A DNA stretch of 64,000 nucleotides from Chiloscyllium plagiosum (lineage: Eukaryota): contig NC_057752.1 in NCBI RefSeq assembly GCF_004010195.1, forward strand, positions 6,150,044-6,214,043, written 5' to 3'. A model generated the notes under the pieces. That model was not told where the DNA came from. It did not search any database and saw nothing but the letters and a program-made list of their open reading frames with translations. Shown here in pieces: positions 7,408 through 57,623 of this stretch; positions within the stretch are counted from its first letter, which is position 1, and every line of letters starts with the position of its first letter. A program made the position numbers and the translations under genes.

Positions 7408-9391
7408 CTGAAAAGGGAAAGATGGAAGAACATGTCTAAGACTGAGCCACTGACTGGGTATTACCAATAGATACAATTGTAAATATGGCTGGGGATCCCT
7501 GATGATGTGACACTGATCTCTGAATCTCAGGGACCTGAGCTCACCTCTCGGAGGTCTGCATTTAAATACCACAGAGAGAATGCAACTTGATCATCTGTGG
7601 TTGGTGACTTGCAACAAATTGCAGGGTAAACTTTACAGAAGCGCTACTACAGAAGTGCTGCTCCCCCCAGACTCGTTTGATGGAAGTGTTGTTGAGAGAA
7701 AGGGGACAAAGGTCAACGTACCTGACTTGCAATGCGCTGATTTCTGGTGAGGGTCCTGATTCTAACTGCGCCATGCTCCCATTGCCATTCTATGGCCGGG
7801 GTAAAGCCACACTAAACTCGCCACGACGAGTTAAAGGAATACAAGTTCTTCTGCAAACGCCTCTAATTCTCTCGAGCATTCCTCAGTTGAAACATTCTGT
7901 GTCAGATATGAGAGCAGAAGTATATGGAAGAAAGGTAAAGAAATGTCTTTCTCAGACCATAAAAGATGTGAGTTATTCAGCCTGGTGTTGCCATAGAATT
8001 GGTAGACAAATGGCTTCCTCGTGCGCTGGAACGATGCTATGACTTCTCCTGTGGTACAAAAGGGATTCCAGAAAGCCTTTCATTCCTCTCTCTCTGACAT
8101 CCTGACCTCACTGCACGAGATCGACTGCCCACGTGCAGTCAATTGGTGGAAAATTTGAGTGTGCAAGACTGACATGTAGGAGAAGATCAAACTGTCCACG
8201 TGTCAAGCATTCTGCATTCCTCAAGTCATCTATCATTCTTGACAGACTAGTATTGTTTCTGTCCACTGATCAAGAAGGAAATCTATGGTTTACCAATGAT
8301 TGCTCCATTTTACCTGGTGAATGGAGACTGTGGGTTGAATGCTTCAGCCCCAGCTTCCTTTTTATTCATTTGTGGGATGTGGGCACCACTGGCTGGACCA
8401 GCATTAATTGCCCATCCCTAGTTGCCCTTGAGAAGTGAGCTGTCTTCTTGAACCACTGCAGTCCAGCTGCTGCGAGGATGGGAACTGAGGGGCAGAGCCT
8501 GGAAATGCTAGCATGTCAGTTTCAATTTTTGTGAGGTGGGTTTGTGGCTGGAAGGGCTACGAACCCCCATGGGCAGGGAACCAATTCAGGCTGTTAAAGG
8601 CCTAATTAAGGTCAATTAAAGAAAGTTGGCTGGAATTTACCCATTGGCCCCTGGTTTCCCACACCACTAGGCGCCAGCATTCCTGGCAGGCCTATAGGCC
8701 CTACCTTGCCTGCCTGGTGCTGGAGCAGCCAGAGGCCACTTTGTAGAGGGGCATTCCTCCCACCATAGTGGTAGCCTGGTTGCTGAAGGGATTTTTTATT
8801 TCAAGATTTTAAAATGTAGGAGAAAGGGATAGCTCCATGTGGAAACACCCTCTCCCTTACTTACCTTCCACTGCTCCTCTCAAGCTAGAAGACCTCTGAT
8901 TGGCCTCTCCAGCTTCACAATCCCACCCAGTGTCCTTATTTGGTCTCCAGGGCAATTCATTGAGCACTCCCATAAAAGTACCAATGAACAACCTTTCCAC
9001 CCCATCCTCTGAGGGCTGAGGTCTGGAAATAGCCCCAACTCCTCTTTTCCAACCCCTGCCCACATGGAAAATCTAGTCTTGCCTTTTCAAAGTTAGGATG
9101 GAGGAGTTGGGTTCCTCAGAAAGTGTATGCATTTACAGAGGGTCTTCCGTCTAGAGATGTTTGAAGGCCATAAATACAGGCAGTAAGGTACCTGTGTAAC
9201 AGCAAGAGAATCAGATCAAACAGAATTTGAGTTTGCCCTTTGTTTCATCAGTTCAACTGGTGCAAACCAAATTTGAAACTTTGCAGCCTCACAAGAACAC
9301 AAGAGATAGGAGCTGGGCAGTCGATATGGCCCATGAGTTTGCTTCACTATTCAGTGCAATCATGGCTGATCTTGAGTGGTCTGAGCTTGAG

Positions 9392-9480
9392 GAGAAGGGC
9401 TCATGCCCGAAACGTCGATTCTCCTGTTCCTTGGATGCTGCCTGACCTGCTGTGCTTTTCCAGCAACACATTTTCAGCTC
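9392..9480 (+). mobile_element. Penelope-type terminal fragment, family P1, single arm
   Basis: gaagggctcatgcccgaaacgtcg...; 15-bp TSD tggtctgagcttgag at 9377-9391 and 9481-9495. Confidence 0.8.
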
Positions 9481-10259
9481 TGGTCTGAGCTTGAGCTTGG
9501 CCCAAGTATTTTATCAAAAGTGTAATTTCCTTAATAATCCGAGGTCAAGGAATACTTTTTTGGACAGGTTCCTCAACAGACAAATTGGGTGGGATAACAT
9601 TTACTTGTGGTAGCATGGATTACACGTGCTTTAACTGTACGAGAACAACAGGAGATCAAGATTGCACTGATTCTTACCTTGTACCAGTAAGTTAATGGAC
9701 CGGCCTCGGCAAACTCTGCCACTGGAAGCCCTCATCCATTTGAGTAGGCCAATGGCATGTGAAAAACACACTTGAACAACTTCAACCCCCAGCTGGGAAG
9801 CATCAAATCCAATGGTGCAGCAGCAACCCTTTAAGCGCTGCAGCTCATTATCATCAGGACAGTTGTACTGAGCAGAAGAATGTGGGTCCATGGCACAACA
9901 GAGACATGGAGGTCAATACTGCTCCCAAATCAGTGCAGTCTGTCAGGGTACCTTTCATCTGCAAGTCAGGAGGTGAAATAACAGCACTCTTGAGATTTTC
10001 ACTGAGGTCTCATGTGGCCCATCAAACATGATAAAAAGTAAATTGGGAACAATTGTACCATCTTGGAGGTAAAGTAGGACAGGACCAGTAAAAGTCCTAT
10101 AATCTCAACTGTTCTTATATTTTTTCCAAGTGTCCCAGTTCTCCTAAGGTCCACCTATCTCGTGTTGCTTCCTCTACCGAAATTTCAATCGGGAATGTCA
10201 CATAATGAAGGAATCATGACTGTTTCCTAGATAACAGTGATAATAGTTTCTATATTCAA

Positions 10260-10565
10260 CTAGAAAAACAGACTTGCAATGCTCTTGCACCCCAGGGTAT
10301 CCCGAAGCATTTTATAGCCAATGTAGTACCCCTTGAAGTGTAGTCACTGTTGTAATGAAGGAAGCATGACAGCCAGTTTGCAAGCTCCACAGCAAGCTCC
10401 AAACAGCAACGTGACAATAACCTGATCCTCTATTTCAGTGGTGTTGATTGAAGGTTAAATGTCTGAAGACCAGAGAGAATTCCCTTGCTCTTCTTTGAAT
10501 TGCATAGTGGGATCTTTTACATTCACCTTAGAAGGCAGACATGTTCTGAAGGATGGCAACTGAAA
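10260..10565 (-). mobile_element. Deu-domain-type SINE (SacSINE1/AmnSINE1-like), decayed
   Basis: gaagtgtagtcactgttgtaatg and tgctcttctttgaa...gggatcttttacattcacct; related copies at ~5790-6330(-), ~44330-44480(+) and ~54220-54750(-). Confidence 0.55.
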
Positions 10566-12295: not shown

Positions 12296-12467
12296 CTGCA
12301 GAACAGAGAGAATGAGGAAGCAAGGAGTTGTTAAGCTCATACAAAAGATGCATGGGTGCATGACTGAAAACTTACATAGGGCATCTTGGCACCAGTGTTG
12401 CCTGACAGAGTGCCAAGCAAGTCATGAAACTGATTAAATCCTTTGTGTTTCAACTTAAAAAATCATA

Positions 12468-12689
12468 GTTAAAAATCACGCAACACCAGGTTATAGTCCA
12501 ACAGGTTTAACTGGAAGCACTAGCTTTCGGAGCGCCACTCCTTCATCAGGTGGATGTGTCCACAACCACCTGATGAAGAAGCAGCGCTCCGAAAACTAGT
12601 GCTTCCAGTTAAACCTGCTGGATTATAATCTGGTATTGTGTGATTTTTAACTTTGTACACCCCAGTCCAACACCGGCATCTCTATATCA
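12468..12689. mobile_element. Palindromic Penelope-type insertion, family P2
   Basis: Inverted arms gttaaaaatcac...catcaggtgg / ccacctgatg...tttttaac plus a ~38-nt tail; TSD taaaaaatcata at 12456-12467 and 12690-12701. Confidence 0.85.
12521..12549 (-). ncRNA. Minimal hammerhead ribozyme motif (family P2)
   Basis: cac-CUGAUGA-a-ggagu(ggc)gcucc-GAAA-GC-UA-gug; palindromic AGCU. Confidence 0.62.
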
Positions 12690-12934
12690 TAAAAAATCAT
12701 AAACATCTTGGACCTATAAGCAGCTTGCTGGAATCACTGTCGTGTACAATCTGAATGATGGGGACTGCTGTGGTAGATTTAAGATATATTTGACATACAG
12801 ACCAAGGAAAACACCTGTGCAAGTGTTTTTTTTGAGAAGAGGTTGCTGGATTGTCTTCTCATTATTCAGTGAAACGTATTTCTGGGCATTTCCTATCTGC
12901 AGAGCAAATAAACAAACAACAAAAAGCCACTTAC

Positions 12935-12995: not shown

Positions 12996-13791
12996 CTGTA
13001 ATTAAGCAGAAATCCATTCATTTCCATGTGGTCAAACAAAGTCAACATTTCGACTTCAAAGAAAAGCAGAACAATCAACAGATAGGAAAGAATTTGGGGT
13101 AATTCCAGAGGCTACTGCACAAAACACAAGGGAGAGGATATGAGGGACTCTGCTCACCCTGACTTGACACACATTAGCCTGGGGTTGCCAGCTGTCAGAG
13201 TTATTAATGGATGCTTCCCCAGGTAGGAGTGACTATACAAATGTTGTTCAAGATAAAATTCAGACAAACCCATTGCTGACCTTAAGAGTTAATATGGAAC
13301 ACTGGAAGCTCCTCCATTGGTTCCCTCTTCACAGAAGTGGGCCATTCAGCTCAACCAGACTATGCTGGTGCTGTGCTCCACACAAGCCTCATCATCTCAC
13401 TTCATCACCATATCCTTCAATTCATTTCTCTTTTATGTGTTTACCAAGCTTCCCCTTAAATGCATCTTTGCTATTCACCTCAACCATTCCCTATAGGACT
13501 TCCACACAGTCATCATTCTGTGGCTAAACAGGCTTCTCCTGAATTCCCTGTTGGATTTATTTAGCGACTATTTTAATATTGATATTGACCTGGTCTGGTC
13601 TCATGCAAAGCTGGAAACATCTTCTCTATGTCCACCCTTTTAAACCCTTTCACAATCTTAAAGGCCTCTGTTAGGTCACTGCTCAGTCTTCTCCTTTCTA
13701 GACAAAAAAAGCCCTAGCTCAGTTGAAACTCTTATCCATGCCTTTGGTACCTCTAAACATGCACCTCTGGATCACCTCTCATATTCCATTC

Positions 13792-14021
13792 GGAGAAAGT
13801 GAGGACTGCAGATGCTGGAAATCAGAGCCGAAGTGTGGTGCTGGAAAAACACAGCTGGTCAGGCAGCATCCGAGGAGCAGGAGAGTCAACACTTCAGGCA
13901 TAAGCCCTTCATTAGGAATGAGGCCTCATTCCTAATGAAGGGCTTATGCCCAAAACATTGACTCCCCTGCTCCTTGGATGCTGCTTGACCAGTTGTGTTT
14001 TTCCAGTGCCACACTATTCAA
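13792..14021. mobile_element. Palindromic Penelope-type insertion, family P1 (decayed)
   Basis: Inverted repeat centred on gaatgaggcctcattc (~13916-13931); near-TSD ctctcatattccattc / ctctcatcttccatcc. Confidence 0.8.
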
Positions 14022-14552
14022 CTCTCATCTTCCATCCTCAATACATTGACATCTGCTTGACAAGCTGCCAAAATCTGCTGTACACCAAAAGCAGGACAAA
14101 TCCAACTTGGCCAATACTTCATCAGTCTATTCTCAATCATCAGTAAAGTGATGGAAGTTGTTATCAACAGTGCTATCAAGAAACACATGCTTAGCAATAA
14201 CCTACTCACTGATGCTCAGTTTGGGTTCCACCAGGGCCATTCAAGTCCTGACCTTATTACAGTCTTAGTCCAAACATAGACAAAAGAGCTGAATTCCAGA
14301 TGTGAGGTGAGAGAGGGAGCCCTTGACTTCATAGTGTTATCAGGGAAAGAGTTCCAGCATTTTTGCCTCAGTGACCCTGAAGGAATTGTAATGTAGTTCC
14401 AAGTCAGAATGGTGAGTAACTTGGAGGAGAACTTGCAGGTGGTGGTATTCCTATCCATTTGCTGTCCTTGACCTTTAAATGGAGGAGGTCACAGATTTGG
14501 AAGATGCTGTGAAAGGAAAGTTGGTGAGTTGCTGCATTGCATCTTGTAGATG

Positions 14553-14753
14553 TGATTTGGAGGTGCCAGTGTTGGACTGGGGTGGACAAAATTAAAAATC
14601 ATGCAACACCAGGTTATAGTCCAACTGGTTTATTTGGAAGCACTAGATTTCAGAGCACTGATCCTTCATCTGATGAAGGAGCAGTGCTCCAAAAGCTAGT
14701 ACGTCCAAATAAACTGGTTGGACTATAATCTGGTGTTATGTGATTTTTAATTT
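14553..14753. mobile_element. Palindromic Penelope-type insertion, family P2
   Basis: Arms meet at cttcatctgatgaag; TSD catcttgtagatg at 14540-14552 and 14754-14766. Confidence 0.85.
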
Positions 14754-15069
14754 CATCTTGTAGATGGTAGACAATGCTGCTACTTTTTGTAGTGGCAGTG
14801 ACTGTTTAAGGTGGTGAAAGTGGTGGCAATCAAGTGCGCCACTTTGTCCTAGATGATGTCAGGTTTCTTGAGTGTTGTTGGAGCAGTGGGGAGTATTCCT
14901 CACACTCCTGACTTTTGCCTTGTCGATGGTGAACAGACTTTGAGGAGACAGAAAGTGAGTTGTTCACCACAGAACTCCTAGCCTCTGACCTACTCTTGCA
15001 GCAACAATACAGTCCAGTTGAGTTTCTGCTCAATGGTAATCTGCAGGATGTTGACAGTAGCAGATTCAG

Positions 15070-15516
15070 TTGAAACTTTATTGCTGGAACAGCACAGCAG
15101 GTCAGGCAGCATCCAGGGAACAGGAGATTCGACGTTTCGGGCACAGGCCCTTCCTCAGGAATGAGCAGAGAGTGTTCAGCAGGAGAAGATAAAAGGTAGG
15201 GAGGAGGGACTTGGAGGAGGGGAGTTGGAAATGTGATAGGTGGAAAGAGGTCAAGGTGAGGGTGATAGGTCGGAGTAGGATGGAGGCGGAGAGGTCAAGA
15301 AGAAGACTGCAGGTCAGGAAGGCGGTGCCGGGCTGGAGGGATCCGGCTGAGACAAGGTGGGGGGAGGGGGGATGAAGAAACTGGTGAAGTCCAAGAGGAA
15401 GGGCCTGTGCCCGAAACGTCGAATCTCCTGTTCCCTGGATGCTGCCTGACCTGCTGTGCTGTTCCAGCAATAAAGTTTCAACTTTGATCTCCAGCATCTG
15501 CAGACCTCACTTTCTC
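15070..15516. mobile_element. Penelope-type insertion, family P1 (young): inverted termini around a 3' region
   Basis: Perfectly complementary arms; the inner minus strand reads ..DFTSF (GIY-YIG ORF end) followed by a pyrimidine-rich 3'UTR; TSD cagtagcagattcag at 15055-15069 and 15517-15531. Confidence 0.88.
15131..15158 (-). ncRNA. Minimal type-I hammerhead ribozyme motif (Penelope-associated)
   Basis: auuc-CUGAGGA-a-gggc(cugu)gccc-GAAA-CG-UC-gaau: full core, 4-bp stems I and II, palindromic ACGU in place of stem III. Confidence 0.75.
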
Positions 15517-18500
15517 CAGTAGCAGATTCAGCAATGGCAACGTCACTGAACATTGAGAGGAGAAAGTTAGGATTCTCATCTATTGGAGATGGTTATTACA
15601 TGATACCTGTGTGGTGAGAACATTACTTTCTTCCCTAAACCTTTTCACTTTTCTATCCCCCTTTCAAACCTTGCTTAAAATAGCCTGTTTGATCAAGCTT
15701 TAGATCATCTGTCCCTAACGTCTCCTTTCTTGGCTCAGGACCAAGTTCTGTTTGATAATTGTCCCTGCGAAGCACCCTTGGTACATTAATGGTGCTATAT
15801 AAATGCAAGTTGTTGTTGTTGGCTGAGATGACGGTATGGGCTCTTGCAACTTTCTGGAGTTCAGAGAGAAGAACATCAGCCAGACTTCCCTTTCTTTGAG
15901 ACAAGCCAACCACATGCTACAAGTTTGGGCTTAACAAGTCAGCCTCACTCACCCTGTACGATGGTCAAAAAGCACACTGACACTCATTGCAAAGTTAACA
16001 TAGGCAATCAGTCAATTGTATGAGGAACCAATGGAGTCAGTGTCTTTAGCAGAGAGCTAATGGAAAAGAATGTGAAGAGGTGGGGCGTGGGATGAAATTT
16101 GCAAACAAGCAGATTAAATATGAATAAATACAATTAGAACAAAATTGTTCAGGTCAGAGTCTGGGAAAATGGAAAATCCTTATTGTATGTTGTTTTTGGA
16201 CAGGGAGAACTTTACCCATGGGCTGTGTAACTAAGAGGTTAACTGCATCAAGAGCAAAATGTGAGTGAAACATTAAACACACAAAGTCTGCCTGTAGTCC
16301 AACAAATGATGTGATAACTGCTGGAGTAAATGTTTGCACAGGTCCAAAGCCAAAACAAGAACCATTTGAAACTTTGATTTGGAAGGAATGTTGGCCTAGA
16401 AGAAATGGGTCGAATGGCTTCCTGCTTTATTGTAATGACTCTATGAGGATTGAAAGGAGTAAGTGCAGGATGCTCCTCAGTGCAATAGTTCACATGCATT
16501 CCCATTATCGAGGCCATATGACTGACAATCCTGTTTTCAGTTTTACTTACATCTAACCCAGCAAGTTGCTTTACAATTTGTGAGTATATTTCAGTCCTTT
16601 AAGAGGAAATTTTAGAAGTTCAGGAGAGAGGAAAACGTGAAGCAACAGTGACTTTGTGGGTTAGCTATGTTTACATGGTGATGGCTATCCTTTGATTTCC
16701 TTATGGAGTCGAACAGAAATCTTTCACGAGTGAAACTGACAACTACAGATGGAACCTCATTGGCATCTGAGCAACATGGTATATGGCGAGATTAGTGGTA
16801 GAATCGGATAAGACATCCAATGAGACCTGTCTCAATGTCAGGAGCATCTTGCTGCATTTTTTATGCTTTTGATGAGTGGTGAGATTAGTTTCTTGCTAGG
16901 CAGCAGTGAGTTGCTAATTAAGGTAGTTTGTAGTTTGTTAAACACCTTGTTAATGGCACAATTCGCCTCATTAATATTGAGCTTCTGTATCTTACCAAAT
17001 CTGCCAAACAAGCTAGATGTCAAGAAATCTTGATATGGAAGTCACAGTGGGTACCTGATGGCTTCAGCTCATTGCTGGCTGTGAGCCTTCATGTTGCTCA
17101 GCATTAAATAGCATCTCAGGGTTTGATCCATAGGCACCAGCCACGCGCACCCCTTGTCCAGAGACATTGCATCTGACATTTGCCACCCTTTGTGATTGTC
17201 ATGCCACCTCACTGATATGCTTGCAGGATGCTTAAGAAGCATGGGCCCACATTGCAGGGTGCACTGGCAACTAGTATTGAAAGGCTACGGCAAGTACACT
17301 TTGTACACAAGGACAGGCACTTCGCTCACAGACTGGACAGGTTGCATCTCATGGCTGCACATTTGTTTCTTTTTTAATGCTTGCTTGCTTGGTGCCTACC
17401 TGCAAGCTCGCATTATCCAGGCGATGTCTTGCCAATTAGCACAGTCACATAGCCAGGCAGCTTGCTTTGCTGTCAGCAGTCCTCAGTCAAAGGGGTGTGT
17501 ACACCAGTGTGTTGCATCGATCACACACCTGCACATTTGCCAGCAACGTATGTGGCAAACTCACACTATGTGCAGCAAACATATCTGAAGTCTTAGGACA
17601 ATAGTCGACACTGAAGTCCATGGAGGCACCCATCAGTCAGGGAGTTCGAGCAAAGTACATTAAAGACAGTCACCAATACTTGTCAAGCAACTGATTGAGG
17701 TGTTCCTGGTCAGATAATCTCTGCTTCTGCAGTGCGGGGAATGGGTCTCAATGTGTGGCTCCATAGCAACCAGTCTGGGGGTTAGGCCAGGCTGAATTTC
17801 AAGCCACCAGTCAGGGAACTGGGCATTTTTTGTCTGGGGCTCTCTGGTCAGGTTGATCAAGGCAGTGGGTCATGGTCAGTGTGATGGATGGATCCACAGA
17901 AACCAAGGGAAGGGATGTCGGGGGAGGAAAGGGCGATTGCTATTACAGGCTTGAGACTTGGGAACCTAATCTTTGGGATTGGGGCTGCAGAATTTTGTTT
18001 TAGGAGAGGGGGTGAGGGAGAATGACAATTGTGAAAGGGACAACAGTATTAGCAAGGGTGGGAATATGATATAGTTGAGGTGGGGGGTCATGAGTATCCG
18101 CCTTGGGACGGGACATTGTATGAACCACATGGGGCACGATTACCTCATTGGCTATGGGGGCTTGGGGGCAGGGAGTTAGCAGAGGTGAGCTGGCGAAGAC
18201 TCATGTGGATAGAGTGGGTGGGGACTTTGGGAGATCACAGGAAAATCTATGAAGAAAGGGATTTGAAAGTTGATGACCTCACAGACACACAAATGTGGAG
18301 GCTGGAAGCCACTGGCAGAGGTGTACTCACTAGCGCCTTCCATTGTGCTGGAAATCAAAAGTGTGCAATGGGACCACACCCGAAGTGGGCATGGTAAGTG
18401 ACTCGGCCTGTGAGGGAGGGGACTGCAGTACCTACCAATGTCAGGGCCCCTTAGAGGCTAATAAAATTATACACAGCATAGGACACACAGACCTATAAGT

Positions 18501-19859
18501 CCACAATCTCTTGGCCATCCTAGTGCATTGCTCCCTGTTTGCCAGGTACCCTTAGACATCACTGACCACTTCATTCACACCAACACCTTTGGACACAGAG
18601 GCCAGGCAAAGAATAGGGACATTACAGTATGAGGGGCAATTGTCTCAGCAATTGCTGGTTCCTCTTGCTTCCACATGTTGCAGCAGGGCCTCAACACAGA
18701 CATCAATTCATCGTACATCATGTGTGAGCATGGCGTTAGGCATCATGCTGGCACAGTTACATTCAAGAATATTATAGAAAGTCAAAATAACAGATACAAG
18801 GTCCAACCAGGGTTCTTTATAGACACATGACAAATAATGTACCATGCATTGTCACCTGTGTCACCAAAGTTCCATCAATAGGTTTCCTTCTTTCTCTCTT
18901 CCCAATATGTCTCAGTGTAGTCCCTGGTTAAACAGCTGGGGTGGAGCCTGTTGGCCCTGGAGGTTTGGTTGGGTGACCCTGGGGGCGTTTGAGTCTGGAC
19001 AGCCCTGACATGCTAAGGGTCCTCTTGGCAGAGGCTGCAACTTCCAAGGGTTGAAGGAGGTAAGACAGGATGGAGGTGAAGGGTCCAGCCACCTCTGGAC
19101 TTCTTTGAGTGGTACCTGTGTATGGTTGCTCCGCTGGCTAGGTGCCATCTGGCACTGCCCTGTCTCAATTGAGGAAGTGTGTGTGAGCCTGCTTCCCCAC
19201 CCTGTTGCCATGCTTTCAGCCCTGATGACCATTAGCTGTAGTGATGGGAGGGCAGGTTTGTGCATCCCTCCAGCAGACTCTGAGGGTTTTGAACCTGGTT
19301 CTGATCGGCAGAATCCAAACTGTCCAGAGGCAACCAGATGCTCATATAACTCACTTGCTCAGCCTTGTGGCAAGAGTCCTTTCAAAAAACTCAAAGCAGT
19401 TCCCACTTAGCCAAAAAAAGTAAGATTCAGTCTACATTTTGTTAATTTATTGCCCTTGGGGAATCATTACCAGCCATTGCATAGGATATCCAGAATTTGG
19501 CCTATGTCAGTGTTATTTTTCCTTCACCTACAGCTTGGGCATTGCTGACAAGTCCAGCATTTGTTTCCCATCCTAGTTGTCCTTAAGAAGATGGTGATGA
19601 GCCACTCTCTTGGATTCAACAGCCAAGAGTCAAACACAATGTTCTGAGTCTAGAGTCACATGTAGGTGAGACTGGGCAGGGACAGCAAACTTCCTTCACG
19701 TATGTTTTTAAAACCAGATATGTTTTTAACAATAATCCAGTCATTTCAAGAAATTGGGAAAATTCATCAGTTTCACTTTCAATTTCTATCCTTTCTCACT
19801 TTCACCTGGTCCATTTCTGACTCTTCACTTGCCTGCCTTGACTTCATTGTTTCCATTTC

Positions 19860-21325
19860 TCAGGATAAGGTATCCATCAATATCCATTAAAAACTCATCG
19901 ACTCCACCACCTCACACCCTGCTTTCTGTGAGGACTCCATTCCATTCTCCCAGTTTCTCCATTGCCACTGTGTCTGTTCTGATGCTGCCACCTTCTACTG
20001 GGCTGCCTCGGACACATCCTCTTTCTTTCCTTCAACCAAGCAACTCCCTGGCATTGTGGTTGACAGGGCCTTCCATTGTGTCCAAACCATCTGCCCTCAC
20101 CTGTTTACCTCCTTCCCAGAACACTTGTCCTTACTTTTCACCCGACCAGTTTCCACATTCAAAGGATCATCACCACTATTTCCACCACCTCCAAACACAT
20201 CTTCCCCTCCCCTCCATGATTAGAATTCTTCAGGGACCATTCGTGGGTGGCACGGTGGCACAGTGGTTAGCACTGCTGCCTCACAGCGCCTGAGACCCGG
20301 GTTCAATTCCCGCCTCAGGCGACTGACTGTGTGGAGTTTGCACGTTCTCCCCGTGTCTGCGTGGGTTTCCTCCGGGTGCTCCGGTTTCCTCCCACAATCC
20401 AAAGATGTGCAGGTCAGGTGAATTGGCCATGTTAAATTGCCCGTAGTGTTAGATAAGGGGTAAATGTAGGGGTATGGGTGGGTTGCGCTTCGGCGGGTCG
20501 GTGTGGACTTGTTGGGCCGAAGGGCCTGTTTCCACACTGTAATGTAATCTAATCATTCCCTCTTTAACACTCTGGCCCACTCCTCCATCACTCCTAATGA
20601 TTCCTCACTCCTCCGTGGCACTTTTCCATGTAATTGCAGAAGGTGTAACACATGCCCATTCACCACCTCCCTCCATGGCCCCAAACACACCTTCCAAATT
20701 TGTACTTCTTTCAATCTAGTCTATTGCATTCCCTGCTTACTATGTGGTGTCCTTTATGTCGCTAGACCAAACGCAGACTGGGTAAATGCTTTGTGGACCA
20801 CCTCCATTCTGTCTGTAGGAATGGCCCCAGCCTCCCAGCTGCTTCCTATTTCAATAAACCACCTTGCTCTCAAGCTAACATTTCTGTCCTGGCCCTGCTA
20901 CCATGTTCCTACGAAGCACAGCGCAAGCTCAACGAACAACATGTCATTTTCCACTTGGGCACTTCACAGCCTGGAAGGGTCAATGTTGAATTCAATACCT
21001 TCAGAAACTGACTACATTATGTCTGTTTGCCATTTTTCTTAGTCTCTTTTCCCCCCCATTTTCCCCCACAGTCATTTTGTGTTTACTTTGCGCTTAGTAG
21101 CAAAGACTCATTCTCTCCCCTTCATGTCTTAATCTACATCCTTTTTACATCTCTTTCTTTTCTTTCTCCACCACTGATAACCTCTCTGTCTTTTGCACTG
21201 GGCCTCTATACCATTTGCCCTCCTGCTTTGCCTCTGCCTCTATCAATGTATAAAAAAGAACTTATTTTCCAACACCTCTCAATCCTGAAACAGTCATACC
21301 AGACTTGAAATGTTAATTCCATTTC
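19860..21325 (+). mobile_element. Penelope-like element 3' remnant (RT end, zinc knuckle, GIY-YIG endonuclease, 3'UTR), interrupted by an HE1 SINE
   Basis: GTFPCNCRRCNTCP; CTSFNLVYCIPCLLCGVLYV; RKLNEQHVIFHLGTSQPGRVNVEF (ORF 20793-21011); decayed hammerhead-like end near 21285-21315. Confidence 0.85.
20243..20554 (+). mobile_element. HE1-type V-SINE, full length, young (CpG-rich)
   Basis: ggcacggtggcacagtggttagc...ggttcaattcc...gggcctgtttccacactgtaatgtaatctaat. Confidence 0.92.
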
Positions 21326-23571
21326 TCCCCAAAGATGCAAACAACAGGGCCTTGTGCATTAACATATGTAGTTTCCAGTACACATAAGTGCACCATACTG
21401 CAAGCCCAAACAACAATCCTAAAATGGTTGCAAGCATGACTCTTCAATACACTCAAGTTTATCTCATAAATGTTGGCCAATTGCAGAATCACATCTAATG
21501 TTAAGACACTACATTGCGAGTTTTGCAAGGGCAGGCTGGTTGGACATGGTCAGGACCCATTTGTTGTGAACAGCTGAAGTTACACGTGATTTGCTACAAT
21601 CAGCCAATGTTTAGGATGAAAGGCTTAGGTATCTGGCATCACAGCAGCACTTAAATTCATATACCAGATTGCTCATTTGTGAGACAGACAGAATGTCTTT
21701 TTCCTGGACAGCAGCATCCTGTCAATGGTGAACACCATTCATGTTCCGACTGTACTTCACCTGTTGCTCAAAACTTTGAGATACTTTACCGAAGTAGACT
21801 GGATACTTTTCCAGACCAAGAGTGACTGCCTTATGACTTTTCATAAGTTTGCACAACCTACAGCAAGAAGTGCCCTGATCAGGGGAACCATTAGTCAACA
21901 GGGTGGCTTTGATCTGCCCTATTTCAGCATCAAGCTTGCACAGTGAACAAATGGCTCGGGCCCTATTTATGAGGTTGCCACTAAGGTCAATCTTATCGTG
22001 TATTCAACTGTAGGAATCCCAATGTGTACACCGATCAGTGAAGGTTGATTGGCAGTTTGAGTAGTACTCAGCCCCTGGCCGATTTCTCAAGTAGGACATC
22101 AAGGAAGGGGAATTCATTTAAACTGATCCATTTCAAATGTGGATTTGATGCTGGATGGAACATATAAATTCTTACGTGCAGCTGTAGATGCTAGTGTAGC
22201 AAATGTATCATATACATATTGGAAGTATGCAAAGGGTCTGAGGCAGATTTGGCAGTTAACTGTTAATCAGCAATAACCAAACCACACTTCTATTATTCAG
22301 AGTTCACTTGTCAACCAATCAGCATTTTCCTCTCATGCAGTACAAATGTTGGTTTCTCCCCCTTGAAATGGTATTCTTGCAAATTGTCTTGATAAATGCA
22401 AGACAAAAATATTCATTACAATGTACCTTTCCTCAGCAATATTTGAATCTGAATTCCCCCATGTGCCATAGTGGGATCTGAATTCCTGTACCTCTTACTT
22501 TCTAGTCCAGTAACATAACCACGATGCTAAGATATCATTACTGCAACAGCAAGCACACTTCAAAACAGTAATTAATTGGTAATAAAGTACTTCGGGACAT
22601 TATGAGGTTTTGAAAGGCACCATAAAATGCAAATCTTTGACACGTATGTGGATTTGGGACAGATCGCCATGGCAACTTGCCTTCATTCCTGAGGCTCAAC
22701 TGCACAAATCAGAGTGTTTGCAGGGAAATTCTAATTCCAGATTGCAGAGGCTGATTTAGATCACACCCTGATCACACTCTGATGAATATCAGGTCGAAAG
22801 TGAAAGCTGGGCCTGTTTGGTATCCAGCTGAGAATTTAGATTCCAGACAAACATACAGCTGTTTCATGGCCCCACTGAATCTCTCTGCTGCTGGATCAGT
22901 GTGAAGAGTTCAGCTATTTCCTGATCTAATTACTTGCGAAGTGGCTTGGGCCGATGTTAACACTGGCTGGGGCAAGGAGTCTCATTTGCCTCCCTGCTGT
23001 ACACTTTTGGCCTGCTGGCATGTTTTCACAGGAGTTTGATACTACACTCTACACACTCTGACTATGGGAGAGACAACTGTAAACAGCGGAGACATTGAAT
23101 TCAGACAAAATATCAAATACTTCAATAGAATTGCACAGACCTTATAAAAAATAAAATAAAATTGAGAATCCTTGGGGATGGGAAATAAGAGAGAAAGTGA
23201 GCTAAAGCTCTACTTGAACCCAAAATGATACTGAATCTATAATGGCTTATAGTGCAGAAAAAAGCTATTTAGCACTTGGTGAAGTCCTTTGTGCAGTTTT
23301 GGTCTCCTTACACAAAGAAGTATATACATGCTCCACAGAGAGCTCTGAAGGATCACGAGACTGGTTGCTGGGCTGAGGAATGCCTTTGAGAAAGGCTTGA
23401 GTAGGCTCGAAAATGTAGAAGAATGAGAGCTGATCTAGATCAGATATTGAAAAGACATTTCTCCTTGTGGGAGAGCCCAGCACCAAAGGACACAGTGTAA
23501 AAGTAATCAGCTGCCTATTTAAGAGTATTTAGGAGTATTTGTTTTCTCTCAGAAGGTTGAGAGTTTTTAGA

Positions 23572-33305: not shown

Positions 33306-33390
33306 ATCAAAAACAGAAATACCGGGAGAAACTTAGTAGGTCTGGCAGGATCAGTGGACAGAAAGCAGAATCAACATTTCAGGTCCATTG
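33306..33390 (-). mobile_element. Penelope-type terminal fragment (P1-related, old) nested in CR1
   Basis: aaaaacagaaata..ggagaaactt agtaggtctggcag..gaaagcagaatcaacatttcagg resembles the arm at 51991-52090. Confidence 0.55.
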
Positions 33391-41134: not shown

Positions 41135-41263
41135 GAGCTGAAAATGTGTTGCTGGAAAAACGCAGCAGGTCAGGCAGCATCCAAGGAGGAGGAGAATCGA
41201 CGTTTCGGGCATGAGCCCTTCTTCAGGAATTTTTCTCCAGCATCTGCAGTCCTCACTTTCTCC
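41135..41263. mobile_element. Penelope-type insertion, family P1, nested in CR1 RT
   Basis: One arm plus an inverted 30-nt tail; TSD tatctaataggacac at 41120-41134 and 41264-41278. Confidence 0.88.
41199..41226 (-). ncRNA. Minimal hammerhead ribozyme motif (family P1)
   Basis: auuc-CUGAAGA-a-gggc(ucau)gccc-GAAA-CG-UC-gauu. Confidence 0.7.
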
Positions 41264-43924
41264 TATCTAATAGGACACAAAGGGTAGTGGCAGAAGGCTG
41301 TTTGAGTGACTGGAAGCCTGTGTCCAGCAGTGTACCACAAGGATCAGTACTGGGAGCCTTATTGTTTGTTATATACATAAATGATAGAGATGAAAATGTA
41401 GGGGGGAATGTTCAGCAAATTGCAGATGACGCCAAGATTGATAGAGTGGTTAATGGCAAAAAAGATGGTTGTAGGTTGCAGGAAGATATAGATGGGTTGG
41501 TCAGATGGTATTGAACCCTGATAAGAGCAAGGTGATGCACTTTGGAAGAAGAAACAAGATGAGGGAGTATTTAATGAACAGCAAGACACTGGGTAGCTTA
41601 GAGGAAAAGAGGGATCTTGGGGTAATTATTCCCAGGTCCTTGAAGTTGGCAGAGCACATCAATAGGATAGTTAAGGCGGCATATGGGACACTTGCTTTCA
41701 TTAGTCACGGCATGGAGTATAGCAGCAAGGAGGTCATGTTGGAGCTGTACAGGTCAGGCCCCAGCTGGAGTACTGTGTGCAGTTCTGGTCACCTCACTCC
41801 AGGAAGGATGTGACAACACGTGAGGGGGTCCAGAGGAGGTTCGCCAGGATGTTGCCTGGGATGGAGAAACTGAGCGATAAGGAGAGACTAGAGAGGCTTG
41901 GATTGTTTTCTTTAGAACAGTGGAGACTGAGGTGGGGATATGATTGAGGTGTACAAGATTATGAGGGGTACAGACAGGGTGAATAGAGAGCAGCTGTTCC
42001 CCTTGGTTGAGAAGTCAATCATTGGAGGGCATAATTTTAGGGTAAGGGGCAGGAGATTCTGAGGGGATCTGGGGGAAAAGAAACCTTTTCACTCAGTGGG
42101 TGGTGGGAATCTGGAATGCACTGCCTGGGGAGGTAGTGGAGGCTGGAAACCTTACAACCTGTAAAAAATATTTGGATGAGCACTTCAAAAATAACATGCA
42201 AGCTTATGGGACAAATGCAGGAAACTGGGATTAGTGCACTTTTAGTGGTAGCTATCTTGGTGCAGACTCAATGGACTGAAGGTCCTTTTTAGTGCTGTTT
42301 GCATCTATGAAAAATACCTACGTTTTTGCCTGTGACTTTACCTGACTACCTTCACCCAGTTACAGAAAATAATAGCTAACACACAACATAAAATTTTGCA
42401 AACACGTTAACTTTTCACCTCTTAATGTAAGGAATAGACATTGGAGACCGTGCTTATACAATAACAGTCCAAGAATACCAGACCCTGCCCCAGCCTCAGC
42501 TCACCTGCTGCAGAAACTCTCATCCACGCTCTGACAATGCCTGACTTATACTCCTCAACTTAATGTTTGCATGTTCACGTTCCAAAGCACTTCTGGCTGA
42601 TCTCTCATATTCTACCTTCTGAAAACACGAGGTCCTCCAAAATTCTGCTGCTTGTGCCCTAACTTGCAAATTAATCCTGATCCTGCAATGCCCAATGCTC
42701 ACTGATCTAACTTGCTCCCAGTTTGGCAATACCCCAGTTTTCAAATCCCTTCACTCTATGGTCTTACGAACCACCACCCCCCTCTCTATAATCTCCTCCA
42801 GCCTCCAAAATTCTCTGGGAATCTGCATTCCTCCAATTCGGGCCTCTTCAGCATCCCAAATTTAAACGTCCCACCACTGGGACTGTGCCTTTAGCTGCCT
42901 GGGCTGCAAGCTCTGGAATTCCCTCCCTAAATCTCTCCACCTCACTTTCCTCTTTTAAGGTACTTCTTAAAACCTATCTCTTTAACCACGCTTTTGGTCA
43001 TCTGACTTAATACCTCCTTATGTGACTCAGTGTCATTGTTTGGTTTCTGATGCTCCTCTGAAGCACACTGAAATATTTAATTACATGAAAGATGGTATGT
43101 AACTGTAAATTGTTATGGTTTGGTCCTGTCAGTTACAGTTCCAAATCGGTTGGGTCCATTTGTTGACTTTCCCACTGCCATTGCCCCTGGACTTGGAAAG
43201 CTCTGTTCAATCTCCTGCTCTGCCTCAGTCATTTTGAGAAGGCCCCCACAGGATCCTTTGCTATTTGTGTTGATTAATTCTTGTCTCTGCTCCAGTAGTA
43301 ACATCACTGTTCTCTGGCTTAACTCCATCACGTTATTTGACATCAGTTCATTTCTCAAGATCAGTACGTTCCACAGGGTCTCTGGAGGCAGTTCTCCAGG
43401 AGACATGTTGTTCCCACTCTACGTCCTCCTCCCTGGACAGTTAAAAATGGCAACTCACCCAAGCAGTGTGTGTGCGTGCATATGTGTGTGTTATAGAGAC
43501 AGTGTGTGTGTGTGAGGGTCTGTGTCTTTGTCATTGCCTATCACAAAAGGAGGCCACCCCTCCCACCTCCAGTTTGATGATGCCTAATTTCAACATCCTT
43601 ATTGCCATGCTGAGATCACGTAGACGGATCTAGGCCTGTTACTGAACTCCCAGTTGCCAGCACTGTTCTGAAACCCAGCCTGCAGTGTAAATCTGACACA
43701 TTCTCAGCAATCCAGCCACTCTTTGGAGGATCCTGTCAGATAGAATATCTCGGGATATATCTTGGAGTCCCATCAGAAAAAGAAACAGTAAAACTTGCGA
43801 ATGCCTCACACCGGTCTGACTTGTCTTGTATACTTCAAAATGGAGCTGAAGTGTGACAAGTAGATTCATTACCAAGTATTTGCAGTTTTTTTTACTGGCT
43901 TTCCCTAAGGTGTCACCCCTGATT

Positions 43925-44144
43925 GGAGAAAGTGAGGTCTGCAGATGCTGGAGATCAAAGTTGAAACTTTATTGCTGGAACAGCACAGCAGGTCAGGCAG
44001 CATCCAGGGAACAGGAGATTCGACGTTTCGGGCACAGGCCCTTCTTCTTTCCTGAAGAAGGGCCTGTGCCCGAAACGTCGAATCTCCTGTTCCCTGGATG
44101 CTGCCTGACCTGCTGTGCTGTTCCAGCAATAAAGTTTCAACAAC
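43925..44144. mobile_element. Palindromic Penelope-type insertion, family P1 (young; perfect 88-bp arms)
   Basis: 43960-44047 is the exact reverse complement of 44054-44141; TSD tcacccctgattgg at 43913-43926 and 44145-44158. Confidence 0.9.
44052..44079 (+). ncRNA. Minimal hammerhead ribozyme motif (family P1)
   Basis: uuc-CUGAAGA-a-gggc(cugu)gccc-GAAA-CG-UC-gaa. Confidence 0.72.
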
Positions 44145-44197
44145 TCACCCCTGATTGGGCCCAGCTATGTTTCCATGGCAGATGAACCCTCTCTCAC

Positions 44198-45245: not shown

Positions 45246-45435
45246 AGGTTTGCTGCGCCAGTGTTTTCTGAAACCTTTTCCGGTCTGATCTCATTTTTAT
45301 GCCTCAGACTTTGTGTCAGCCAAGTGAAATTTTTATTTGGGGGGGGGCGGGGAGTGAGTTTGAGAGTTGGATGGGAGAGGGGAGCACTTCAGTTGTTGAT
45401 GTAATTGGGGGAAGATGGTCATGAAAAGGCAGAGT

Positions 45436-45553
45436 CTAGATTAGAGTGGTGCTGGAAAAGCACACTCGGATGCTGCCTGACCTGCTGTGCTTTTCCAGCA
45501 CCACTCTAATCTAGACTCTGGTTTCCAGCATCTGCAGTCCTTGTTTTTACCCT
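45436..45553. mobile_element. Short palindromic Penelope-type insertion (P1 variant, no ribozyme core)
   Basis: ctagattagagtggtgctggaaaagcaca / tgtgcttttccagcaccactctaatctag; TSD at(g/a)aaaaggcagagt at 45421-45435 and 45554-45568. Confidence 0.8.
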
Positions 45554-46251
45554 ATAAAAAGGCAGAGTTCCTCCAAAAAAAACCTACCCATTCACAGGCT
45601 TTCTCACAGCAATAGTAGGGCCTCAGAGAGCAGCCCACTAGGCCACGTTCACCAATAAAGCAAACGCATGTGTTTTAAGGGGCCTCGCAGCTGTCAGAAA
45701 TCAAACTGAACACCATGAGAGTCGTGCTACCTCAGAGTTCGCAATTCCACTGAGATTCACAACCCACAGTTCAGGACACCCTGCTCTAAGGCAAGTATGC
45801 CCTTCCTTAGGTAAGATGATTAAAACTCTACTATTTCTGGGTTTGTATTGTGCGCAAATTACATCAGCCTACATAACCACAGTGATGGCCTTCTAAAAAG
45901 GATCTTATTGGTTGTACTGTTCTAAGAATGTGACAAGGCTCCAAATAAAAGCTTTATGCCTGGGTTACCTTGAGCCCATTGGTGTCTACAAATGGAATCA
46001 TTTGAAGTGAGTCATCCTGCACTTTCTCATCTAGACGGTGCAGCAAAGTACATGGGGGAGGGGTTCGTTTCCACCTGCCTACAATTACTGGCCTATAATG
46101 TGAGGGTAAGAAGCGTTCACCAGTGAACACTATCAATTGGAATTCCGAACAAGGTCCATTTGCACGTGCTTTTCATCATGCCAGTGGCTGACTGGGCCCT
46201 GGCTTAGAGGGGCAGGGGAAACCTCAATAAACTGACCCCTTCAAATTTTAT

Positions 46252-46449
46252 GCGAAAGTTGTAGATGCTGGAGATCAGAGTCAAGATTAGAGTGGTGCTG
46301 GAAAGCATGGCAGGTCAGGCAGCATTGAGGAGCAGGAAAATCAACGTTTTGGGCAAAAACTCTTCATGATTCCTGATGAAGAGCTTTTGCCCGAAATATC
46401 AATTTTCCTACTCCTTGGATGGGATTTTCCAGCACCACTCTAATCTTGA
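46252..46449. mobile_element. Palindromic Penelope-type insertion (P1 variant, decayed)
   Basis: Inverted arms with cctgatgaagagcttttgcccgaaa; TSD cccttcaaattttat at 46237-46251 and 46450-46464. Confidence 0.8.
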
Positions 46450-46565
46450 CCCTTCAAATTTTATCCTGCTGTCCTGTTTGACAACTGCCTTTGGCATCTC
46501 CTGGCGCCATCATCTCATAGAGTAGTTACAAATCCAGTGTTTCCCTACTCAAATCAAGTGCTCAC

Positions 46566-51614: not shown

Positions 51615-52345
51615 TAGATTATTGCATCCATATTATGAAAAGGATATAGAGGCAGTGGAGAGAGTGCAGGGAAGATTTACAAAGATGATCTTGGAAATGG
51701 ATGTGGGCATTTTTATCAGGAAAGGATTGAAAGACTGGGTGTCTTCTCTCCTGGAGGAGACATATGGAGGTCTTTAAAATTATGGAGGATTTTGATAGAG
51801 TAAATACAGAGAGAATGTTTCCTCTTCTGGGCAAAAGCAGAACTGGAGACCATCAATACAATAAATCCTCAAGAAATTCAATACAGAATTCAAAACAAAG
51901 TTCTTCACTTGCAGTGAGAACCCACTACCACAGGGTTGAAGTGAATGGTATAGTTGCATTTCAGGGGAAACCAGATAAGTATCTGAAGGAAAAGAAAGAA
52001 CAGAAATTGCTGGCAAAGCTCAGCAGGTCTGGCAGCATCTAGGGGAAGAAAGCAGAGTTAAAAATTCGAGTCTGGTGACTCTTCATCAGACTTTGTTGGA
52101 CTCACAACATTAACTCTGCTTTCTTCCCCCAGGTGATGCCAGACCTGCTCAGTTTTGCCAATAGTTTGTTTTTGTTTCAGATCTCCAGTATTCACAGTTG
52201 TTTGTTAGATTTAAGTGTCTGAAGGAGAAAGGAATAGAGAGTTACAATTACAAACTTAGATGAGGAAAGATAGGAGGAGAGCTGAGTGGAGCAGTAACAT
52301 CAGCATGGACTAGTTAGATTAAATGTCCTGCTCCTGTGCTGTGTA
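51615..52345 (+). mobile_element. Old CR1 3' fragment with a nested Penelope palindrome
   Basis: PYYEKDIEAVERVQGRFTKMI; EVFKIMEDFDRVN. Confidence 0.75.
51991..52211. mobile_element. Palindromic Penelope-type insertion (P1-related, old)
   Basis: Inverted arms; minus-strand CTGATGAagagtc(acca)gactcGAA; TSD taagt(a/g)tctgaagga at 51976-51990 and 52212-52226. Confidence 0.75.
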
Positions 52346-55763: not shown

Positions 55764-55805
55764 CAAATGCTCAATATTCTTTACGGTTCCAGTACCCTTT
55801 CTTGG
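55764..55805 (-). CDS. TNS2: Tensin-2-like coding exon (post-C1 linker) PRKGTGTVKNIEHL
   Basis: ttcccacag|CCA...TTG|gtgagt, 42 nt, phase 0/0; resembles human TNS2 RRNTAPVRRIEHL. Confidence 0.85.
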
Positions 55806-57498
55806 CTGTGGGAAATCGGAAACAGGAAAGTTATTAACTGACGCATTAACAAAACTAGCCTTTTTCCTGCAGGAATGTACAACAAGCTAATTCTGGGCAC
55901 TCATCCAGCCTGACATGACAGAAATGTCACGTGCTTATATCTCACTACCCCACGCCCCTCCCACTTCTATCCTCCTGCATTTCCCAATTGTAAGAGGAGT
56001 CAAGAATGTCCTGATTCAGAATTTTCAAAAGCCACAAATAACCACAGAGTTGGAAAACATAAGCACCAAGGATTTTGTTCCAATGAAGAAATGTCTCCAT
56101 GAAATCATGGACTGGTTTTAGCATAAGAGGAGGTGACTGAGCTTGTCATGTCCATGCTGATTCTCTGCAATATCAACTCAGCTAGTCCCATTTCATCACC
56201 CTCTTCCTGGAGCTTTCCAAACTTCTTTTTCTTCAGGTAATTATCCAAATCCCATTGAAACACCACAACTGAATCTGCTTCTATCACATGCTGAGACAGT
56301 GCATTCCAGACCTACACTTAAATAATGTAAAAAGGTCTGTCTTGGTGCGGCCTTTTTTTTCTGCCATTCACCTGTGTCCTCTCATTTTCAATCCTCCCGC
56401 CAACAGGAACTGTTTCTGTCTAGCTACTCTGTCCAGGTCTCACATGACTTTAAATGTCTCTTATTAAATCTCCTCTCATCGTTTTTCTAAAGAGGAGAGT
56501 TCCAGTTACTCCAATCTATCCAAATAACGTTTTGGACCCATTCTCATTCAGCGGTTTTTGCAGGAATTTCGTGCTTCTGGTCGGAAAACTGCACTCTAGA
56601 TCACAGAGTGATTTTACATCAGAAAAATTTCTCTGTAAAATTCTCGTCCTGAATATCATGGAGTGAAATTGGAGAAGACAAAAAGGAGTGAACAATGAGT
56701 GTTCTCTGTAAGAGAAATCTGGTCAGCATGGATGGGTTGGACCAAAGGGTCTGTTTCCATGCTGTACATCTCTATGACTCTATGACTCTATAACTATAAA
56801 AATGAAGCTCCCGCTGATCAGCCCTATCACCAGCCTGCCACCCCAGAGGAGCGCACAGATTCCTGACAATGCGGAATCACAGCTTAAAATACCCCATACT
56901 CTACAGTTTCTTCTTCCCTTGTTTGTCAATTGTATTACTGAAACAGAACTTGAAGCAGGCACATTATAATGCTATTTATTTCAGCCGAGACATAATTTTA
57001 TATGCAACACTATACGTATAAGGTAGAGACATTAATAAGTAGAATGTAAGCAAATAAAAGATTTTAAAAAGATAATTAAGTGTACAAATTGGTTTCCATT
57101 CAAAGGCATGAAAACTGCACATCGTCTTTACTTTCAATTATTTACAATTGTCACATACAGTCACTGATGTGTCTTGTAACATAAATTATTGAAAATCCAT
57201 TTAAACATTAGCCTGAGAAAGTTTCAGTCAATACTTAAACACTGCTAAAAAGATGCATAAAATTTAAGCTTTGTGTCTTGCACTCATTAGGACTGGGATG
57301 CAAGAAAACAAACTTCATAATGGAACACCAATTTTTCGATTCAATTAATTCAAATATAAGACTGTTTTTCTCCAAAGTCTGATTAACCTGTTGGTGCATG
57401 CCGGTATTTTTGTTGGTATCCATATATTTTTTTAAATTCCAAACAAATTAGAAAAAGGATACAGAACCAGAATCAATGCCCAACACCAACGCCAACTG

Positions 57499-57623
57499 GG
57501 AGAAAGTGAGGACTGCAGATGCTGGAGATCAGAGTCGAAGAGTGTGGCGCTGGAAAAGCACAGCAGGTCAGGCAGCATCTGAGGAGCAGGAGAGTCGAGC
57601 TTTTGGGCATAAGCCCTTCATCA
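57499..57623 (-). mobile_element. Penelope-type solo arm, family P1
   Basis: ggagaaagtgaggactgcagatgctggagatc...gggcataagcccttcatca. Confidence 0.78.

Follow-up and report, generated by a model that had tools for sequence, protein, structure and literature searches.

Palindromic hammerhead-bearing inserts in a shark genome as probable truncated copies of a Penelope-like element

The P1 inserts of Chiloscyllium plagiosum are quite probably 5'-truncated products of an autonomous, endonuclease-bearing Penelope-like element (PLE), and no separate mobile class. All ten related inserts that the initial annotation had placed in the window (the whole 64,000-nucleotide stretch of DNA that was analysed) are found in place, including the relative at 51991. 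In total, P1 makes up 1861 bp, or 2.9%, of the window. The earlier reading of these inserts as Penelope ends holds, with ORF linkage found in the 15070 insert and in contigs of run X15 and with a structure that matches published PLE insertions throughout. A distinct ribozyme-bearing mini-retroelement class, which had also been proposed, is not borne out: junctions vary, one copy retains ORF and 3' UTR sequence, the P2 family shows the same layout, the majority of hammerhead cores are damaged, and the cleavage site coincides with no 5' end.

Arms are numbered with hammerhead C3 as +1. P1 has two fixed 3' end sites separated by 35 nt, and the 35-nt tail is present on exactly one arm in 7/7 two-armed inserts. 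The 13792 insert (13776..14035) has a tail arm on the minus strand (13790-13923), a short arm on the plus strand (13924-14021) and a 14-bp target-site duplication (TSD). Both of its arms start at about -10 and carry the core change G5A. The centre of this insert is perfectly palindromic. The young 15070 insert (15055..15531) has a short arm on the minus strand and a tail arm on the plus strand (15395-15517, from +3), with a 15-bp TSD at 15055-15069 and 15517-15531. The young 43925 palindrome (43913..44158, 14-bp TSD) consists of a minus-strand tail arm (43925-44047, from +3) and a plus-strand short arm (44049-44141, from -3) with complete core. The arms are 100% identical within 15070 and within 43925 and 98% identical between these two inserts; the arms of one insert share private letters. 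At 41135 (41120..41278, 15-bp TSD) a minus-strand short arm from about -4 to +90, with complete core, is joined to a second, plus-strand arm that is a tail-only piece (41231-41263). These two arms do not overlap and have no sequence in common. The 45436 insert (45421..45568, 15-bp TSD) has no hammerhead and joins a minus-strand short piece (45436-45464) to a plus-strand tail arm (45465-45553). The 46252 insert (46237..46464, 15-bp TSD) has a minus-strand tail arm from +4 and a plus-strand short arm from -4, the latter with an internal deletion and a stem II mismatch. The 51991 insert (51976..52226, 15-bp TSD) belongs to a related subfamily, with a minus-strand short arm, a plus-strand tail arm and a 5-bp stem II changed on both sides.

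The remaining three inserts are single arms. The plus-strand copy at 9392-9480 (whole feature 9377..9495) ends at the short site without a tail, starts at about +5 and is flanked by a 15-bp TSD (9377-9391 and 9481-9495). A minus-strand tail arm at 57499..57624 starts at +2, and its second arm was possibly lost by later deletion. The diverged minus-strand arm at 33304..33386 is of the 51991 type and without the CUGANGA box. The TSD search found no duplication at 33306 and 57499. The description of the copies as mostly palindromic with an unpaired tail thus stands for seven of the ten, where two arms lie head to head, though 41135 forms no palindrome; of the nine related copies, 33306 groups with 51991. 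Direct repeats flank eight of the ten inserts (9392, 13792, 15070, 41135, 43925, 45436, 46252 and the relative at 51991). They are 14-15 bp long with 0-1 mismatch and score 12-15, while a score of at least 12 is reached by just 1 of 300 random position pairs. Target sites show a slight preference for AT (64% vs 57%).

The link to a source element comes from the long arm of the 15070 insert. Its 5' end holds the last 26 codons and the stop of a GIY-YIG ORF (LDFTSFFIPPPPT...; 15314..15394, minus strand), and a pyrimidine-rich 3' UTR (15159..15313, minus strand) runs from the ORF stop to the hammerhead. Linkage of the arm to such an ORF, considered in the initial annotation, is therefore present, the arm being preceded by ORF end and UTR. 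The peptide aligns with the C-termini of GIY-YIG proteins that whale-shark gene models encode. A search with a GIY-YIG C-terminal profile gives E 0.0036 among 3263 window peptides, an optimistic value because the profile was made from only 5 of 123 proteins, chosen for carrying the same C-terminal extension. Contigs of run X15 extend past 15395 in frame into the endonuclease; they are three in number, come from another organism and have a median loose length of 8. Their hand translation reads LGTLRPRGMN, with 7 of 10 residues identical to P0042. The homologue P0117 has RVT_1 and GIY-YIG together; the material examined contains neither a full-length P1 element nor a P1 copy reaching the RT.

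The hammerhead motif itself is complete at 15127..15162 on the minus strand. This minimal type I motif is made of a 4-bp stem I, CUGAGGA, an extra A, a 4-bp stem II, GAAA, CG and UC, and its predicted cut lies after +28. Minimal cores had been attributed to the best copies; complete ones with stem II occur in three arms (15158 minus, 41226 minus and 44052 plus), which is 3 of the 7 arms extending back to C3, and the cores of the other 14 of 17 P1 arms are incomplete. A hammerhead pattern scan of the window returns six matches, three in P1 and three in P2, vs none in all 200 resampled windows. Palindromic 15.2-16.2 and the extra A are seen in 6/6 matches, and G-C at 10.1-11.1 was required by the pattern filter and hence is no independent result. 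Pattern scans find no match in prokaryote genomes and three loci in metagenome contigs, all chance matches of 24-25 nt within a bacterial-looking gene. In an Rfam search of the window, with matches to E 5 considered, hammerhead families are absent. Stem II is paired to 90.6% and stem I to 69.7%. The paired share is attained by 6 of 500 shuffles and the number of double-changed pairs by 24 of 500, a covariation signal that is weak given the relatedness of the arms; two of the stem II changes are contributed by the 51991 type.

Folded as the motif, the monomer is predicted at -7.7, less favourable than its minimum of -9.8, and for two strands the predicted structure differs from the hammerhead dimer. 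The motif is buried in a predicted hairpin of -199.5 kcal/mol. Cleavage as the origin of the 5' ends was rejected, as 0 of 17 P1 arms start at the predicted cut site (+27..+31). In RNA run X23 neither read starts nor read ends pile up, which says nothing on cleavage because the run is from a single-cell poly(A) library, fragmented and read at about 2 in 100. We infer that these stubs carry the hammerhead as a passenger, which would not set their ends and, by the fold model, could not form within the long hairpin. An AATAAA at +77 was dismissed as a family poly(A) signal, being confined to the 15070/43925 subfamily.

The ends of the arms are more informative for the insertion process. The tail end is fixed, with diverse loose ends behind 15517 in 4/4 runs from three organisms (agreement 0.35-0.39). 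The initial annotation had set recurrent ends against variable breakpoints, and the map within the 64-kb window is mixed in this respect: the internal junctions of all seven two-armed P1 inserts differ, yet 11 of 17 arms have their 5' end within -10..+5, a 16-nt stretch at the hammerhead's front edge (the other six lie elsewhere). The simulated chance of this clustering is 0.0002-0.003, or 0.005 with one end per insert. The cluster perhaps marks the start of the template RNA. Contig joints occur at many places, each in a single contig and several with 1-3 extra letters, though subfamily divergence at 90% likeness makes part of these positions artefactual. At 15070, 41135, 43925, 46252, 51991 and in the P2 insert 30444 each arm has sequence that its partner lacks, so fold-back of a single cDNA cannot yield these six inserts and is ruled out for them. 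None of the ten inserts in the window is a head-to-tail tandem; contig joints from 15517 to 15430/15437 may be partial tandems of this kind, in a joint table that is without orientation.

A second family, P2, is unrelated to P1, yet its layout is identical. It makes up 1.5% of the window, with palindromes at 12456..12701 (with hammerhead, 12-bp duplication), 14540..14766 (13-bp duplication) and 34672..34988 (12-bp duplication) and a two-armed insert at 30434..30668 (13-bp duplication), each with one tail. The shared layout points to a general insertion pathway rather than a separate class. One tail arm is paired with one short arm in 7/7 P1 and 4/4 P2 two-armed inserts (0.5^11 = 0.0005).

The most likely origin of the two-armed inserts is double priming, with one cDNA per staggered nick, the tail end on one and the short end on the other. 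The element protein would nick both strands 14-15 bp apart, and each free end would prime a separate cDNA on the element RNA, with the tail site used by one and the short site by the other. Both cDNAs would end early, often at the RNA start or by stalling of the enzyme before stem II, and host repair would produce palindrome and duplication by joining the two far ends head to head. An inverted truncated copy with a one-sided 30-40 bp tail is known for PLEs from the available text of PMC8557442 and PMC3846280, and minimal hammerheads stand solo or on opposite strands in PLEs according to that of PMC4209133. Two RT start sites bound the tail, both strands are nicked and extended, and hammerhead mutants leave insertion unaffected (PMC11167929). 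The geometry suggests double priming, though antisense self-priming would give an identical one.

Such self-priming, in which an antisense RNA of the same PLE folds back on itself, has been proposed for rotifer Penelopes (available text of PMC3846280), and we regard it as improbable here. It predicts that the tail-less arm extends further 5', as at least 6 of 11 inserts show, but the tail arm extends further in 45436 and P2 12464. The palindromic centre of 13792 and RNA reads mapping to both strands agree with it; the junctions, with little complementarity and extra letters, do not, and in vitro it is sense RNA that is copied, from two tail boundaries and on both nicked strands (PMC11167929). 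Since the 5' clustering exceeds plain random truncation, a short dedicated RNA also fits. A non-autonomous family could use an RNA with a length of about 95-135 nt, beginning at the hammerhead front edge and made from solo pLTR copies, an unlikely proposal. It includes SINE-like copying of this RNA by the PLE protein in trans, where the insertion chemistry would be the same and the template different. The 11 of 17 clustered 5' ends occur regardless of 3' end type, but run-off from the 5' pLTR of a full mRNA accounts for them with no new element needed, and six ends fall outside. Between arm and UTR, depth in run X2 falls by a factor of about five to ten, a drop confounded by subfamily divergence, and the UTR and ORF end still stand at 0.6-1.6 million summed depth (summed contig depth was not taken as copy number). 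PLE transcription starts within the pLTR, which is sufficient in cis (available text of PMC8557442 and PMC3846280), and G5A on both arms of 13792 also favours such an RNA. Against it, 15070, which is 98% like 43925, contains the UTR and ORF end, and X23 shows no read-end pile-up, although its library type is unlikely to reveal one.

A non-LTR retrozyme, whose RNA units cleave themselves, circularise and are copied into the genome, is very unlikely, and for these copies this reading is largely refuted. Animal non-LTR retrozymes resemble P1 in being non-coding and pLTR-related with a type I hammerhead (PMC7229834; bioRxiv 10.64898/2026.07.22.740005), and pLTR-derived retrozymes are known in one chondrichthyan (bioRxiv 10.64898/2026.07.22.740005). 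They are, however, head-to-tail tandems with a ribozyme per unit and circular RNA (PMC7229834; bioRxiv 10.64898/2026.07.22.740005), while P1 is head-to-head or single and dispersed. The window holds no head-to-tail units, 0 of 17 ends lie at the cut site, complete cores number just 3 of 17, and the long hairpin buries the motif. A MITE-like DNA transposon with terminal inverted repeats would share the palindromic form and the flanking duplications. The asymmetric tail, the variable centres, the 14-15 bp duplications and the single-arm copy 9392 with its duplication leave it virtually no chance, and the GIY-YIG ORF-end link together with the one-sided tail rules it out.

P1 stands close to described systems. 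In the available text of PMC8557442 and PMC3846280, EN+ PLEs (Penelope/Poseidon, Neptune, Nematis) share with P1 the 5' truncation, the head-to-head inverted copy and the TSD. Such sources also describe a one-arm tail (35 nt in P1) and a repeat preceded by a GIY-YIG ORF end and UTR; unlike these elements, most P1 inserts are the repeat alone (85-250 bp), at high density. Rotifer PLE duplications are given there as 8-10 bp, vs 14-15 bp in P1. For the minimal hammerheads of metazoan PLE pLTRs described by Cervera and De la Pena (2014, available text of PMC4209133), the core boxes, the short helix I, the extra base between 9 and 10.1, G10.1-C11.1 and palindromic 15.2-16.2 are as in P1, and so is the arrangement, mostly solo or as opposite-strand pairs 100-700 bp apart. 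Helix II has 4-5 bp in P1 vs 7-8 bp in Schistosoma families; that available text has no mention of 5'-end clustering at the motif and does not name sharks. For Poseidon of Anolis carolinensis in vitro (Frangieh et al. 2024, PMC11167929), two fixed 3' ends bound the tail and insertion ends are not defined by the hammerhead, as in P1. In contrast, that element is of the Poseidon clade with its ORF start within the hammerhead, and the study reports no paired use of both start sites in one insertion.

In the published literature searched, no paper on this shark family was found. P1 is one more PLE with minimal hammerheads and an insertion pattern already described for PLEs, very abundant and mostly ordinary. 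It is useful chiefly for repeat annotation, where its hairpins are easily taken for MITEs or miRNA precursors. Rfam gives miRNA/hairpin matches in the window, all sub-threshold. The mechanistic hints, i.e. strict tail/short pairing, paired arms of which neither is copied from the other and 5' ends at the ribozyme front edge, weigh more, and the formation of PLE inverted repeats and tails becomes testable by counting within one genome. If double priming is true, sharks would carry PLE start site, nick spacing and joining as very numerous natural read-outs.

The source PLE of P1 is probably of the Neptune clade, to judge from sequence relatives. The CX2-5CxxC motif of the linker that precedes the endonuclease is found in P0117 and in a remnant near 20 kb, that is, in relatives only rather than in P1's own ORF. 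This decayed Neptune-like remnant (19771..21011, plus strand) has the linker, a CxxxxCxxC motif and a GIY-YIG end, is frameshifted, and belongs to a family other than that of the young P1 copies. A Pfam search of its pieces gave no family, and ORF 20548-21039, which is in the wrong frame, matched 0 of 92 candidates in a word-based protein search. A SINE is inserted in it at about 20244-20550. A putative degenerate hammerhead-like end of the remnant, weak at nhmmer E 0.42, lies at 21270..21335 on the plus strand and resembles 51991/33306.

The ten P1 inserts proposed in the initial annotation (9392, 13792, 15070, 33306, 41135, 43925, 45436, 46252, 51991 and 57499) are all present at the places it gave. 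The direct repeats that it placed around them also hold: repeats of 14–15 bp flank 8/10 P1 inserts, compared with 1/300 random position pairs, and none were found at 33306 and 57499. In a search of the window, all matches to an arm profile fall within the ten inserts: 15 have E <1e-9, and a short piece has E 0.11. Blastn recovers a tail-only piece at 41135, for a total of 17 P1 arms. Each arm is a fragment of a single unit that runs, in one sense, from a short stem I through CUGANGA, an extra A, stem II, GAAA and a palindromic dinucleotide to UC. With C3 numbered +1, some 60 nt lead from the UC to +90, called the 'short end', and certain arms reach +125 by way of a 35-nt tail. Seven of the ten inserts are two-armed. 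P1 takes up 2.9% of the window and a second family, P2, another 1.5%. P2, an insert family with a hammerhead, lies at 12456-12701, 14540-14766, 30434-30668 and 34672-34988; it is unrelated to P1 in sequence but alike in its two-armed layout, with an AC-rich tail of about 38 nt and duplications of 12–13 bp. The inserts at 15070, 33306 and 41135 sit inside what we take to be LINE relics.

The pairing of arms is strict. One tail arm is joined to one short arm in 7/7 two-armed P1 and 4/4 P2 inserts, with a probability of 0.0005 for 11/11 if the ends were independent. In six inserts (15070, 41135, 43925, 46252, 51991 and P2 30444) the short arm has 5' sequence absent from the tail arm, and the tail arm has 3' sequence absent from the short arm; in 41135 the overlap is zero. 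This mutual exclusion rules out one cDNA copying itself. Private letters are common to both arms of one insert: 15070 and 43925 differ at N7, alike in both arms, and G5A stands in both arms of 13792, so both arms came from one template or were homogenised later. In the in vitro work of PMC11167929, each of the two strands is nicked and then extended by a PLE protein, reverse transcription has two start sites, one at either boundary of the tail, and insertion is still normal with a dead hammerhead. Double priming is the simplest joint reading that we infer from these data and the window patterns. Two nicks would be made 14–15 bp apart at the target, each start site would give one cDNA, and repair would join the two cDNAs head to head. 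Antisense self-priming, as outlined in PMC3846280, also fits the geometry of the two-armed inserts, but is the less likely alternative on biochemical grounds.

The 5' ends are clustered as well. By manual reading, with an uncertainty of 2–3 nt, 11/17 P1 arms begin at -10 to +5; none of the 17 begins at the predicted cut (+28/+29). Under a uniform and arbitrary null, the simulated chance of this cluster is 0.0002–0.003, rising to 0.005 when each insert contributes a single end. The position is equal in tail and short arms, indicating that it is set by sequence and not by length. Ends at the front edge of the hammerhead could plausibly reflect run-off at a hypothetical RNA start within the upstream pLTR, since the pLTR is where Penelope's start lies (PMC8557442). 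The same cluster may also come from a short template RNA made for the purpose or from an enzyme that stalls ahead of stem II. The P2 5' ends are more spread, from about -44 to +19. At 15159-15164 (-), letters just before the core resemble an initiator element, a highly degenerate motif; its A falls at -4, and three arms begin there or next to it, at -4, -4 and -3.

In the window a hammerhead filter gives six matches, three in each of P1 and P2; 200 resampled windows give none. The hammerhead is complete in only 3/17 P1 arms, pairing is 90.6% in stem II and 69.7% in stem I, and the stems show weak covariation. No Rfam hammerhead model matches at E up to 5. The predicted transcript of a two-armed insert is a perfect hairpin of 88 bp (-199.5 kcal/mol); since this predicted hairpin would bury the single sense-strand motif, a P1 stub probably does not function as a ribozyme. 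G5A is an inactivating hammerhead change, and in insert 13792 it occurs identically in both arms (13893-13954). The central 60 nt there form a near-perfect palindrome, against 88% likeness over the arms as a whole. The cause is either mobilisation of a template with a dead ribozyme or later homogenisation of the hairpin centre.

Protein alignments and independent contigs identify the P1 arm as a GIY-YIG element's downstream terminal repeat. In 15070, the long arm starts with LDFTSFFIPPPPT and a stop, followed by a 155-nt UTR and the hammerhead; the insert therefore breaks off within the ORF, and the break coincides exactly with the inversion point. With the decayed GIY-YIG remnant at 19.8–21.0 kb as bait, 123 proteins are found at E up to 0.001; ten were checked for source and comprise eight whale-shark gene models, one ray and one unnamed. 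Several matched proteins end in VDFTSFKISPPPT, which aligns with the codons that open the 15070 arm. With a profile built from 5/123 proteins picked for carrying this extension, the arm start ranks second, behind the bait, among 3263 peptides of the window (E 0.0036, which is optimistic given that choice). In sequencing run X15, three contigs diverge from the reference behind 15395; hand translation in frame gives LGTLRPRGMN, whose counterpart in protein P0042 is LGTLQPKGIN. Protein P0117 carries RT and GIY-YIG. The putative Neptune label for P1 derives from relatives and not from an RT of its own: the Neptune-type cysteine motif, as defined in PMC8557442, is present in the remnant and in P0117. 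This decayed Neptune-like PLE with a GIY-YIG end spans 19771-21335, and its own end is degenerate and hammerhead-like, resembling 51991 and 33306. It is interrupted at about 20244-20550 by what is presumably a SINE. In the shark and ray gene models P0011, P0009, P0001 and P0005, one of them named mucin-2, PLE endonuclease ends are fused to unrelated or out-of-frame sequence; these fusions are annotation artefacts.

The P1 inserts are thus real and abundant, and are a further instance of a known PLE insertion type. Truncation, an adjacent inverted copy and a one-sided tail of 30–40 bp are typical PLE features in PMC8557442 and PMC3846280. The motif has the traits given for minimal PLE hammerheads in PMC4209133, where they are reported solo and on opposite strands. 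For the whale shark, PMC8455134 includes Penelope among the LINEs it lists. Tests for retrozyme and for MITE identity of the inserts fail. A search that covered few subscription papers found none on the P1 family, paired start-site use or 5'-end clustering.

The stretch 15068-15394 is found in 20/24 listed runs, from eight studies and four coded organisms. Four runs were mapped onto 15147-15640 at 90% likeness, with 26,657 contigs from run X2. Summed depth in X2, which is no copy number, is 4.9–10.6 million in the arm core, 0.6–1.6 million in the UTR and ORF end and at most 11 in the flank. Low-agreement loose ends accumulate behind 15517 in 4/4 runs, indicating a fixed tail end and diverse flanks. 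Among the best supported rows, low-depth single-contig joints are scattered over many places, some with 1–3 extra letters, their exact positions being partly a product of subfamily divergence. RNA reads map to both strands and 93 in 100 continue into dissimilar sequence, the pattern that passive read-through would give. Over 15147-15520, RNA run X23 has A>G or T>C at 36/77 changed places, versus 16/42 in X2, and T>C at 15190 is confined to one read orientation (10/73 versus 0/41). These changes could reflect A-to-I editing of hairpins or alleles of other copies.

Elsewhere in the window, presumed LINE reverse-transcriptase fragments lie at 24169-24744 (RVT_1), 25528-26094 and 62983-63693 (RVT_1). 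The 317-aa ORF at 31693-32646 matches zf-RVT weakly (E 0.0027, under the cut-off) and is likely a LINE of another clade. A 125-aa open frame at 60135-60512 (+) is not repeat-like and is possibly a host exon. A degenerate short-period repeat cluster (family D16) occupies 10594-10873.
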